A program made the position numbers and the translations under genes. The notes under the pieces are model-generated. The model saw only the letters and a list, made by a program, of their open reading frames with translations. It was not told the origin of the DNA and ran no database searches. From contig CAIKZD010000007.1 of the NCBI GenBank assembly GCA_903831805.1, positions 7,886 to 71,885 of the forward strand: 64,000 nt of DNA, read 5' to 3'. Shown piece after piece: positions 7,920-9,120 of the stretch (position 1 is the stretch's first letter; each line of letters opens with the position of its first letter). The DNA is from an uncultured bacterium (GTDB taxonomy: Bacteria; Patescibacteriota; Minisyncoccia; Moranbacterales; UBA2206).

Positions 7920-8045
7920 TATAATTTTTAATTTTATAATTTTTAAATAATGCTCGAATTTCTAATTTTTAAAAATTTGAAAATTTAGATTTATTTATAA
8001 AATTATAAAATTACAAAATTAAAAATTGATTTGTTTTTGTGTTAT
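7920..8045. repeat. AT-rich element paralogous to the 23S rRNA helix-25 intervening sequence
   Basis: Shares ATTTATAAAATTACAAAATTAAAAATT and TAATTTTTAAATAA with 19505..19620. Confidence 0.5.
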
Positions 8046-8077
8046 AATTAACCAGTATAATATTTAAAGTTATTCTT

Positions 8078-8641
8078 ATGGAAATTTTGAAAAGAATCGC
8101 CCGCGCCTGGAGGCTGATCTTGTTCATTATTGTGGTCATCGCTTTGGCCGCTGGCATAATCTGGGGCATTTTTTGGGGGGTGAATAAAATTTTCTTCCAT
8201 GGCAAATTATGGAGCGGGGGCGAGGTCAAAACTTATCAAGTCTTGGTTTCCATTCGCGACAACACCATGCCGGATCCGATTGAGGATAAAAAAAGTTCCA
8301 TCAAAAAAGGTTATGTGGTTGGTTTGTATGACGAAAATCATGAGTGGTCCGACACCGAAAAAGTCAGTTTTTTGATTTTGAAAATGAAACTGAACGACAC
8401 GGAGGCTTCGGAACTGACGCAACCGGTGCAAAAAGACATAGATCTGAAAACTTTGCCCAAAGATCAGCAGCAAGCTATAAAAGAAGAAAAAAATCCTCAG
8501 GCACAAAAAGAAACCATCGCCGCGCGAGCGTGGAAAATCAATCTGGACAAAATCGGCTTCTCCGACCCCAATTCGCTCCTCACCGGCCAACCGTATCTGG
8601 ACAAGGTTTTTGGGTGGGAAATCGTTGAGAAAATTAAATAA
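8078..8641 (+). CDS. Hypothetical membrane-anchored protein
   Basis: ORF track. N-terminal TM segment LILFIIVVIALAAGIIWGIFWG. Confidence 0.5.
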   Translation: MEILKRIARAWRLILFIIVVIALAAGIIWGIFWGVNKIFFHGKLWSGGEVKTYQVLVSIRDNTMPDPIEDKKSSIKKGYVVGLYDENHEWSDTEKVSFLILKMKLNDTEASELTQPVQKDIDLKTLPKDQQQAIKEEKNPQAQKETIAARAWKINLDKIGFSDPNSLLTGQPYLDKVFGWEIVEKIK

Positions 8642-9056
8642 TCATAAAATGTCAAAATCCCAATTTCCAATGTCAAATAAAATCCAAAATCCTAAAAAAT
8701 ATGATTTAATCGAAAGAACTTCTGTATTTGGAGAAAATATGATTGATTTTTTAAAAACTATCCGAAAGGATGAAATAACCAAGCCACTCGTCAATCAATG
8801 TATCAGAAGTGCCACTAGCATCGGGGCTAACTACATGGAAGCGGATTGTGCTGAGTCAAAAAAAGATTTCAGACATAAGATTGGGATATGCAAGAAAGAA
8901 TCAAAAGAAACTATGCATTGGATGAGAATGATTGCCAGAGCCACTGACGCAAAAGAAAATTGTAGAATACTGTGGAAAGAATCTCAAGAGCTAACCTGGA
9001 TATTTTCAGCCATAATCAATAAAACAGATAAAAATAACGAAATATCAAAATTATAA
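8610..9056 (+). CDS. Four-helix-bundle protein (TIGR02436 / '23S rRNA intervening-sequence protein' family, Avd-related)
   Basis: LVNQCIRSATSIGANYMEADCAESKKDFRHKIGICKKESKETMHWMRM matches the family. The start is probably the ATG at 8649, inside the left inverted repeat. Confidence 0.65.
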   Translation: MGGKSLRKLNNHKMSKSQFPMSNKIQNPKKYDLIERTSVFGENMIDFLKTIRKDEITKPLVNQCIRSATSIGANYMEADCAESKKDFRHKIGICKKESKETMHWMRMIARATDAKENCRILWKESQELTWIFSAIINKTDKNNEISKL

Positions 9057-9120
9057 GCCCCTTTTTTAATTTGTCATTTGGATTTTTAACATTTATTTGA
9101 CATTGGAAATTGGGATTTTA
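8640..9120. mobile_element. IVS-like hairpin element carrying the four-helix-bundle ORF; paralog of the 23S helix-45 intervening sequence
   Basis: Left arm 8646..8700 and right arm 9062..9120 are inverted. The core AAAATCCCAATTTCCAATGTCAAATAAA is exact over 28 nt. Both arms match the two halves of the 23S insertion at 20278..20402. Confidence 0.6.

Follow-up and report, generated by a model that had tools for sequence, protein, structure and literature searches.

Hairpin insertions in a Patescibacteria 23S rRNA gene as probable ribosomal copies of dispersed palindromic cassettes

Two hairpin elements at 7912-9128 of a 64,000-nt stretch of DNA from an uncultured Patescibacteriota bacterium (contig CAIKZD010000007.1; hereafter, the window) were analyzed together with the hairpin insertions in the 23S rRNA gene of the same stretch. 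The results suggest that the "intervening sequences" (IVSs) of this 23S rRNA are ribosomal copies of genome-wide palindromic cassettes. [quoted passage not shown] The window holds one full cassette, in which the open reading frame (ORF) of a PF05635/TIGR02436 four-helix-bundle protein (IVP) lies between two arms, and three ORF-less copies, namely 7912-8030 and the insertions in helix 25 and helix 45. The hairpins were assigned to arm families (types A, B, and C), and loci fetched from other genomes or metagenome contigs are denoted by L-numbers. The rRNA IVSs belong to the same families as the intergenic type A and type B elements and hence are not a separate kind of sequence. Moreover, the families were found in unrelated operons, in another rRNA helix, and in frame in lepA, and hairpin types and IVPs were swapped at syntenic sites; therefore, the elements were inserted at the DNA level.

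The insertions were present at the helix-25 and helix-45 sites of the 23S rRNA gene, as the first-pass annotation of the window had stated. According to the Rfam model alignment, the helix-25-site hairpin follows position 583 of the large-subunit (LSU) model (~19487-19640), and the helix-45-site insertion (~20275-20413) occupies the apical loop of the hairpin at model positions 1206-1226, where helix 45 is marked by the context ACCGAAG..GCGG / GGUAGGGgAGCGUUC. Local alignments between these insertions and the intergenic elements were tested against 500 dinucleotide-preserving shuffles. The segment 7905-8030 was colinear with the helix-25 insertion over ~125 nt (z=11.9), and 95/118 aligned bases were identical between 7912-8031 and the hairpin at 19505..19625. 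For the cassette, 43 of 48 bases were identical between 8648-8695 and the left half of the helix-45 insertion (20280-20327; z=8.9), and 9066-9107 aligned with the right half (z=4.5); in the repeat search, the right arm was 74% identical to 20344-20397. An independent repeat search of the window found the same element pairs. The relationship proposed earlier between the intergenic hairpins and the 23S insertions was borne out by these colinear alignments.

All four elements are AT-rich and consist of short repeated units (spacing of 8), as would be expected if they were chance products of AT-rich low-complexity sequence. The probability of such an origin is practically negligible. The z-scores of the true pairs were high under dinucleotide shuffling and those of three cross-type control alignments were non-significant (z=0.7-1.7), which indicates that the similarity is specific and not a matter of general AT-richness. 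Furthermore, family-specific BLAST matches occurred at only four places in 64 kb, and the same families were recovered from many other genomes. Low-complexity AT-richness lacking colinearity was thus refuted by the shuffles, the cross-type controls, and the family-specific matches in the window. The exact run common to 7920-8045 and the helix-25 insertion is real and measures 25 nt (8003 / 19588), the 27-mer quoted for it occurring only at 19586. The "28/28 core" that had been assigned to the helix-45 comparison is the left arm of the cassette (8654-8681) against the reverse complement of its own right arm, and the longest exact run between the cassette and the helix-45 insertion is 17 nt.

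The coordinates of the elements and of the surrounding features are given in Table 1. All four elements of the window formed extended stem-loops with z-scores of -3.0 to -6.7 compared with shuffles. The RNA fold of 7912-8030 had an energy of -25.7 kcal/mol (z=-4.1), and the long stem of the cassette was closed in a 500-nt RNA fold (z=-3.0). The inverted repeat of the cassette comprises 43-nt arms (8654-8696 / 9077-9119, 84% complementary) with the ORF in the loop between them, and a perfect 28-nt stem core is located at 8654-8681 in the left arm. The type A arms are composed of CAAAT-like units, and the type B arms are composed of AATTTTTA-like 8-nt units. The helix-45 type A hairpin retains the start codon and N-terminal codons of the cassette (ATGTCAAATAAATTCCAAAATCCAAATGACAAAAA) and has no ORF in its loop. 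Both 7912-8030 and 8643-9128 are located between protein-coding genes and not inside the 23S rRNA gene, so the four-helix-bundle ORF, which had been described as IVS-borne, has protein-coding neighbors instead. The type B hairpin begins immediately after the stop codon of the 607-aa gene, and its end lies upstream of the sequence that resembles a promoter for the 187-aa gene. The similarity of the cassette to L096, L093, L007, L095, and the helix-45 insertion runs from ~8643 to ~9128, the flanks being unrelated; according to these boundaries, the cassette takes up the spacer that separates the TAA (8639-8641) from the next ATG (9131).

Table 1. Positions of the hairpin elements, their neighboring genes, the rRNA genes, and the diversity-generating retroelements (DGRs) in the window (VR, variable repeat; TR, template repeat; RT, reverse transcriptase)
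Feature	Position	Strand	Remarks
Laminin_G_3 protein gene, 607 aa	6088-7911		TGA stop 7909-7911
Type B ORF-less palindromic hairpin	7912..8030	.	arms 7915-7943 / 7999-8027, 86% complementary
Host gene between the hairpins, 187-aa protein	8078..8641	+	TAA stop 8639-8641
Type A IVP cassette	8643..9128	+	left arm, IVP ORF, right arm
Left arm of type A cassette	8648..8696	+	holds both candidate starts (8649, 8670) and about the first 9 codons (8670 start)
IVP ORF, 128 aa (135 aa from alternative start 8649)	8670..9056	+	PF05635/TIGR02436
Right arm of type A cassette	9066..9122	+	complementary to left arm
Laminin_G_3/TIG protein gene, 1579 aa	9131-13870		ATG 9131
23S rRNA gene	18887-22994		Rfam; 4108 nt versus a model of 2925 positions
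Type B hairpin in 23S rRNA gene, helix-25 insertion	19505..19625	+	fold -34.5 kcal/mol, z=-6.2
Type A ORF-less hairpin in 23S rRNA gene, helix-45 insertion	20275..20413	+	fold -38.4 kcal/mol, z=-6.7
5S rRNA gene	23346-23459		Rfam
DGR1	VR 88-235; avd 242-640; TR 996-1143; RT 1164-2258	avd +; RT minus	target gene runs off the left edge
DGR2	target 23721-24908; VR 24797-24905; TR 25224-25333; avd 25321-25716; RT 25673-26731	avd minus	

The presence of a four-helix-bundle ORF in the loop of the helix-45-like copy, between the 43-nt arms, was confirmed by family models. IVP matched PF05635 with E=7.6e-12 (45.8 bits, cut-off 33.8) and TIGR02436 with 67.7 bits (cut-off 24). The AlphaFold monomer (pLDDT 90.9) had helices at residues 13-28, 37-59, 64-91, and 95-127, and residues 1-10 were disordered. 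The top Foldseek matches of the model were 2rld (E=1.7e-5, TM 0.84) and 2gsc (TM 0.83), and 2rld was the sole sequence match to IVP in the PDB. The motif reported as GxxRxxxSxxxNxxE (PMC3936711) is found in the 128-aa IVP as RxxxSxxxNxxE (R46, S50, N54, and E57), with Q43 in the position of the leading G. Among 30 IVP homologs, S50, N54, and E57 were invariant, and R46 was conserved in at least 90%. The dN/dS values were 0.05-0.13, and IVP is under strong purifying selection. More than 5000 homologs were found, the closest of which were 60-93% identical and came mostly from Moranbacteria, Falkowbacteria, and other Patescibacteria. The left arm encodes the start of IVP (MSNKIQNP...), which forms the disordered tail in the model. 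Since many non-coding hairpins have this nucleotide motif as well, the left arm is conserved at the nucleotide level. Compared with L096, 62/63 positions of the left arm and 62/72 of the right arm were identical, and 18/28 of the 4-fold synonymous sites of the ORF were identical. Both the cassette arms and the IVP protein are under constraint. No transposase domain is present in IVP, and the sampled cassettes encoded no protein other than IVP between arms of these types.

The distribution of IVP cassettes was surveyed with one genome per species, which gave 80 loci with close IVP homologs and 81 IVP genes, none of them in a 23S or 16S gene (blastn with the window 23S and conserved 16S/23S motifs). 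Homologs with 79% and 81% identity are located inside a pyruvate:ferredoxin oxidoreductase (POR) operon (L007, L093), and one with 80% identity is located between the pilC and pilin genes (L095). The arms are the same in all three, and the IVPs are on the same strand as their neighbors. The flanks of IVP were complementary at z<=-3 in 54 of the 81 cases, with a median duplex energy of -52.7 kcal/mol versus -33.5 kcal/mol for shuffles. Relative to random orientation, IVP was co-oriented with its upstream neighbor in 70/78 cases (p~1e-13) and with its downstream neighbor in 68/78 (p~1e-11). Ordinary genes in these loci behaved similarly, 84% of adjacent pairs being co-oriented, and this likeness fits the expression of IVP from host transcripts. 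Seven more cassettes, drawn from the syntenic loci, the window population, and the two operon kinds (POR and pilus), brought the number typed by their arms to 88 (A, 64; B, 13; C, 1; unclassified, 10). Type B arms flank an IVP ORF in L063 and also in L091, where arms at 3431-3471 and 3864-3885 surround an ORF at ~3497-3845 and an ORF-less type B hairpin is present at 5853-5970. Because type B arms flank IVP ORFs too, the two insertion types of the 23S rRNA represent two arm families of one kind of cassette. The full type A and type B cassettes are ~400-490 bp long, and the ORF-less hairpins of both types are ~110-130 bp long.

The ORF-less members were traced by scanning metagenome contigs for an exact 21-base type A motif, which gave 97 matches, of which 80 loci were fetched; viral contigs had no match to this motif. 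According to an approximate hand tally of the 80 loci, ~35 were compact intergenic hairpins of 100-140 nt, ~14 had G+C-richer palindromic repeats nested in the loop, 12 were unrelated matches inside one coding gene, and the remainder were solo arms or unresolved; compact hairpins thus made up the majority of genuine family members. Three of the motif loci were 23S genes, namely L168 (that of this organism itself), L136, and L159. L136 has a type A hairpin in helix 25, and L159 has one in each of the two helices, 25 and 45, which indicates that the type A family uses either rRNA site. In two other genomes (L137, L142), a type A hairpin lies in frame within lepA and adds ~30 residues just before LIDTPGHVDF, so that LepA reads through the hairpin (...RMEYELKNPNVKIPMSNKIQNSNEKKLESGNWDLEIANSRYILNLIDTPGHVDF...); the gene entered here is universally conserved. 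The orientation of the ORF-less hairpins showed no bias with respect to their neighbors, which says little since the orientation of a near-palindrome is ill defined.

The turnover of the elements was followed at the two sites that flank the 187-aa gene, the orthologs of which are 74-78% identical and have the same neighborhood in L194, L196, and L197. At the downstream site, the type A cassette of the window corresponds to an A-like cassette with a 68% identical IVP in L197 and to a cassette with type C arms (ACTCAATAACCAATACTCATTCAATAT...) and a 49% identical IVP in L194; L196 has no IVP there and carries an ORF-less type C hairpin and a type B hairpin. At the upstream site, where the window has its type B hairpin, L197 has nothing, L194 has a type C hairpin, and L196 has a type B hairpin with 103/116 aligned bases identical to that of the window. 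The IVPs at the same site diverge more than the host gene, and IVPs in unrelated operons elsewhere are 79-81% identical to that of the window. This pattern indicates replacement or re-insertion at preferred sites and not simple vertical descent. The earlier suggestion that IVS hairpins are mobile is strongly reinforced, because the same arm families occur in unrelated contexts, in another rRNA helix, and in lepA; the turnover of hairpin types and IVPs at the syntenic sites backs it as well.

Several observations weigh against the proposal that the IVSs are ribosomal copies of mobile cassettes. No IVP-bearing cassette was seen within an rRNA gene among the loci examined; what ties the IVP-bearing cassettes to rRNA is published work together with the remnant of a start codon in the helix-45 hairpin. 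Neither a clean empty site nor a convincing target-site duplication was found. The upstream site of L197 is free of a hairpin, but its upstream gene differs too, and the cassette site is ancestral in this small clade, being common to the three relatives. The window copies are not mutually closest (103/116 for the type B hairpin against L196 versus 95/118 against helix 25), and hence give no sign that an element moved recently within this genome. IVP core identity was 63.0/61.7% within arm types and 61.1% between types; a value hardly higher within a type argues against arm-specific recognition by IVP. Arm mismatches were G-U-compatible in 109 cases and A-C in 154 (56 versus 60 in the ORF-less hairpins), a comparison of low power, since part of the left arm is coding. 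As the arms had no excess of G-U-compatible mismatches, selection at the RNA level is not demonstrated. RNase III cleavage, rRNA fragmentation, and IVP expression are putative here.

The same data bear on whether the hairpins could instead be host regulatory structures (terminators, RNase III sites, or mRNA stabilizers) that were kept vertically and resemble the rRNA insertions through a shared processing function. Such structures would explain why the hairpins lie exactly between co-transcribed genes, why the arms are constrained at the nucleotide level, why the long stems fold far better than shuffles, and why the type B hairpin and the cassette site are common to relatives; moreover, Correia hairpins can be RNase III targets and provide promoters (PMC2649163). 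This explanation is unlikely, however, given that the same families are found in unrelated operons, different rRNA helices, and in frame in lepA, that hairpin types are swapped at one site, and that other repeats are nested in the loops. In addition, no terminator with a G+C-rich stem and a T-run was detected in 7700-9400, and the arms have no wobble signature. A secondary regulatory effect is compatible with dispersed, inserted cassettes as the best explanation.

If the elements are inserted cassettes, the insertions may persist where they are harmless, that is, exactly in the gap from one gene's stop codon to the start codon that follows, at dispensable tips of rRNA helices, or in frame. By analogy with known systems, the transcribed arms would form a duplex of >40 bp, a substrate of the RNase III type, so that the element could be cut from the rRNA or the flanking cistrons could be separated; this duplex would account for part of the harmlessness. 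RNase III was not seen among the window ORFs scanned, and the 64 kb are a small part of the genome. IVP would have no promoter of its own and would be read from host transcripts. The start codon lies inside the stem; hence, ribosomes probably translate IVP during transcription, while the 3' arm has yet to be synthesized.

No transposase is encoded in the elements. Because the cassette encodes no protein but IVP, and strong purifying selection acts on it, IVP is the leading, though tentative, candidate for a factor in the spread or retention of the element. Its clades do not follow the arm types, and the absence of a wobble excess, of a clean empty site, and of a target duplication likewise speaks against IVP as the agent of movement. 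A bolder and more doubtful proposal is that the IVP cassettes are the autonomous partners of transposase-less palindromic elements. An Avd-like IVP pentamer would act on the folded arms (DNA or RNA) and help them to be copied or inserted at the tips of hairpins and in intergenic spacers, and the ORF-less hairpins, including the classical 23S IVSs and the in-frame insertions, would be non-autonomous derivatives. IVP might in this case recruit a host polymerase, nuclease, or reverse transcriptase. If true, this proposal would give IVP/S23p a function and would explain the rise and spread of rRNA IVSs.

The elements might alternatively be non-autonomous repeats that are moved in trans, for example by a Y1 (IS200/RAYT-like) transposase acting on single-stranded DNA hairpins, with IVP as passenger cargo that has a host-level function. 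Two RAYT-like genes are present in the window (2441-3118 and 26881-27555) and three more near the fetched loci. Furthermore, the ORF-less copies that match the motif are abundant, IVP adjoined the motif match in 0/80 fetched loci, and co-variation of the IVP clade with arm type was essentially absent. We regard movement in trans as rather unlikely. Instead of type A/B arms, unrelated G+C-rich palindromes lie on the flanks of the RAYT-like genes of the window and of L146, and most loci fetched around IVP genes or type A motif matches had no RAYT-like match. Moreover, in the sampled cassettes no protein besides IVP was seen between such arms, the larger type A loops examined holding nested repeats and no other gene. 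The type A and type B hairpins neither flank the RAYT-like genes nor are cognate to them, and the RAYT-like transposases were rejected as the mobilizing enzyme because their flanking palindromes are unrelated.

The relationship between IVP and the Avd proteins of the two DGRs was also examined, since the first-pass annotation had grouped avd1, avd2, and IVP as three members of one set and had linked IVS proteins to DGR Avd. That IVP is a third Avd working with the two DGRs of the window might be supposed from three facts: avd1 hits PF05635 as well as PF22296, bAvd is a clear structural match to the IVP model, though a weaker one than 2rld and 2gsc (TM 0.76), and both DGRs are apparently active. 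The supposition is very improbable. Both avd1 and avd2 hit Avd models (PF22296, NF033474), whereas no match of IVP to either model was reported, and IVP had no pairwise or profile similarity to avd1 or avd2, which are themselves only 22% identical. The nearest RT genes (1164-2258 and 25673-26731) are 6-7 kb and 16 kb from IVP, and no adenine-specific repeat pair (TR/VR) was found near 8643-9128. Moreover, a total of 198 fetched loci (1.21 Mb), which surround syntenic sites, IVP genes, and matches to the type A motif, contained no RT or Avd. Recent paralogy of IVP with the two Avds was rejected, and nothing meaningful could be expected from a phylogenetic tree of the three. The link between IVS proteins and DGR Avd holds at the level of superfamily homology, which was already documented (PMC10053308); the functional part of the claim drew no evidence from this analysis, and no RT is near the IVP gene.

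The cassettes share several features with known systems. The IVP-bearing 23S IVSs of Leptospira, Coxiella burnetii (helix 45), and a few CPR genomes likewise combine a PF05635/TIGR02436 protein, a long stem, and an ORF in the loop, and 23S IVSs occupy the same rRNA sites (helix 25 and helix 45) as the ORF-less copies of this window. The Coxiella helix-45 IVS carries an ORF of the IVP family and is excised by RNase III, which also removes such duplexes from pre-23S rRNA in other bacteria (PMC4990558). The heptamer repeats upstream of its start codon may be compared with the short tandem units of the arms here (PMC4990558). Unlike these IVSs, the ORF-bearing copy of the window is extra-ribosomal, as are the 80 sampled IVP loci without exception, all being located in or between operons of protein-coding genes, and the rRNA copies of the window have no ORF. 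In addition, the Coxiella ORF is decaying and probably untranslated, whereas the window IVP is under strong purifying selection. In CPR rRNA insertions, 22 IVP ORFs have been reported, 18 in 16S and 4 in 23S (PMC11270868), and IVP genes embedded in cas operons are also known (PMC3936711). Ralph and McClelland 1993 are credited with the idea that IVSs are mobile and that the ORF they carry serves this mobility (PMC4990558).

Among the palindromic repeats, the RPEs (~100-150 bp, several families, no transposase) are found both intergenically and in frame in conserved genes (PMC10969869). The in-frame habit is paralleled by the type A hairpins in lepA, a likeness of behavior. To our knowledge, no ORF-bearing full-length form of an RPE is known; here, in contrast, every arm type also occurs around an IVP gene (in one case for type C), and the family supplies rRNA insertions. 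Correia elements have defined terminal inverted repeats and a TA target duplication. Unlike in the Correia elements, no target duplication was resolved here, and no rRNA or IVP-bearing forms have been described for them. Correia (CREE/nemis) and ERIC-type MITEs are similar in being intergenic inverted repeats that are co-transcribed with neighboring genes, have ends that can create promoters, and form RNA hairpins cut by RNase III, as in Correia-containing mRNAs (PMC2649163, PMC10969869). The ORF-less hairpins are MITE-like in their length (110-130 bp), inverted repeats, copy number (four in 64 kb and dozens in metagenome contigs), and unrelated contexts. They differ from MITEs in that no transposase-encoding autonomous parent is seen and only IVP lies between the arms. 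REP/REPIN-RAYT systems also combine abundant intergenic hairpins with RAYT-like genes such as those in the window, but the RAYT palindromes are G+C-rich and different. The DGR Avd proteins have the same four-helix-bundle fold and Pfam/CDD superfamily as IVP; unlike them, IVP fails the Avd-specific models. Compared with integron attC cassettes, the arms flank the ORF on both sides and have no GTTRRRY core (read by eye, with no dedicated attC model). Furthermore, unlike in integron arrays, the copies are single and lie inside ordinary operons, rRNA, and lepA, and no integrase was seen among the window ORFs scanned.

Helix-45 IVSs with IVP ORFs, the mobility idea, IVP insertions in CPR rRNA, IVPs in cas operons, and IVP-Avd homology are already published. 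In the literature searched, we did not find rRNA hairpins described as members of dispersed palindromic families, full-length forms described as IVP cassettes that lie mainly outside rRNA, or the RPE-like behavior of the families and their turnover at fixed sites. Neither rRNA nor intervening sequences come up in a review on the MITEs of prokaryotes from 2024 (PMC10969869). The origin of 23S IVSs and the role of their four-helix-bundle ORFs have been open questions since the early 1990s. In one lineage, the rRNA insertions are now placed in dispersed palindromic families, the sampled ORF-bearing forms of which are all extra-ribosomal and in ordinary operons, and the hairpins are seen to enter a conserved protein gene in frame and to turn over at fixed intergenic sites. 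The old mobility hypothesis thereby becomes concretely testable. For annotation, inserted cassettes are a better reading than operon components for the "four helix bundle protein" genes found in cas, POR, and pilus operons, and unexplained CPR rRNA insertions become classifiable by arm family.

The cassette ends and neighboring spacers had further features. ATAAAATGTC is found at both ends of the cassette (8642 and 9124) and is not reproduced in L096, L007, or L093; it could reflect target duplication, microhomology, or coincidence. The low-complexity repetitive arms blur the boundaries, and automatic calls of boundaries and target duplications (RNAfold, duplexfold) are unreliable there. The longer string ATAAAATGTC(A/C)AAAT occurs at 8642-8656 and 9124-9138, the second copy including the start codon of the downstream gene, and the L197 ortholog of this gene likewise begins with ATGTCAAAAT, which resembles the arm motif. 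The 187-aa protein matched no Pfam or NCBIfam family and has a hydrophobic stretch at its N-terminus (RLILFIIVVIALAAGIIWGIFWGV); the promoter-like sequence upstream of its gene is TTAAAA-18-TATAAT with a TG (8019-8048). An outward promoter-like sequence, TTGACA-16-TAGATT, is located at 9097-9124 in the right arm, from which a transcript could start at or near the ATG at 9131, and its TTGACA is the complement of the arm's start-codon motif ATGTCAA. Promoter-like matches are frequent in this AT-rich stretch (15 found versus 4.6 expected), and the match at 9097-9124 is weak.

Variant arrangements were seen in other genomes. Two IVP genes, or an IVP cassette with extra ORF-less hairpins, are clustered within a few kb in L022 (1600-1971 and 3501-3872), L064 (2562-2671), and L018 (153-198, 1253-1670, and 4179-4204). 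Type C arms (ACTCAATAACCAATACTCATTCAATAT…) are located at 3330-3460 and 4066-4600 in L194 and at 4062-4165 in L196. In L194, a complete type C hairpin follows the IVP ORF, so that the left arm is present twice in direct orientation, a layout that could yield an ORF-less hairpin by deletion between the left-arm copies. The LepA (EF4) proteins of L142 (10786-12819) and of L137 (on the minus strand, 4086-4715 when counted on the reverse complement) gain ...KNPNVKIPMSNKIQNSNEKKLESGNWDLEIANS... from the hairpin. In L135 (match at 4054-4075 minus) and L140 (match at 4015-4036 minus), a type A left arm that stands alone apparently supplies the start codon and an N-terminal extension, MSNKVQNSKF, to a gene read by eye as RpiB-like (…KIIIASDHAGFELK…). 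Nested palindromes were present in the type A loops of L100, L106, L110, L118, L123, L129, L150, L155, L157, L161, L165, and L167, where 100-310 nt of other G+C-richer palindromic repeats are found (GTGAACAG…CTGTTCAC, CACGAAAGCACGAAA…). Palindromes nested in palindromes hint that hairpin tips are preferred targets.

The 23S rRNA gene has two further insertions. A block of ~0.8 kb (21100-21900) at the site CTAAGG/…GAGCGAAATTCC contains a LAGLIDADG_1 ORF (21342-21848) and had no match to a group I intron at the Rfam gathering score. A stable hairpin at ~22185-22310 (-50.8 kcal/mol, z=-7.6), which we take to lie in the helix 79 region on the basis of the E. coli sequence, is without a paralog in the rest of the window. 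When Rfam was applied to the window, the gathering score was reached by LSU and 5S rRNA only, and 7800-9250 gave no credible Rfam match. No 16S rRNA gene was detected by Rfam within the 64 kb that hold the 23S-5S pair; hence, the rRNA genes are apparently unlinked.

In the DGRs, the differences between TR and VR fell at TR adenines in 13/13 cases for DGR1 and in 16/18 cases for DGR2. One gene of each DGR is opposite to the TR strand (RT in DGR1, avd in DGR2), unlike the co-oriented arrangement of the Bordetella phage DGR. Each DGR RT is followed by one of the RAYT-like genes (IS200-like Y1, NF047646 below the cut-off), and the copies share 70% identity across 300 nt (2687-2986 / 27124-27423). 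A perfect or near-perfect G+C-rich palindrome precedes each of these genes (2625-2676 and 27041-27103), and G+C-rich palindromes are found on both sides of the gene in L146. A related palindrome is located at 23564-23613, and repeats of the TGGGAGCTCAACTCCC family are located at 3133-3169, 3574-3610, and 4026-4062.

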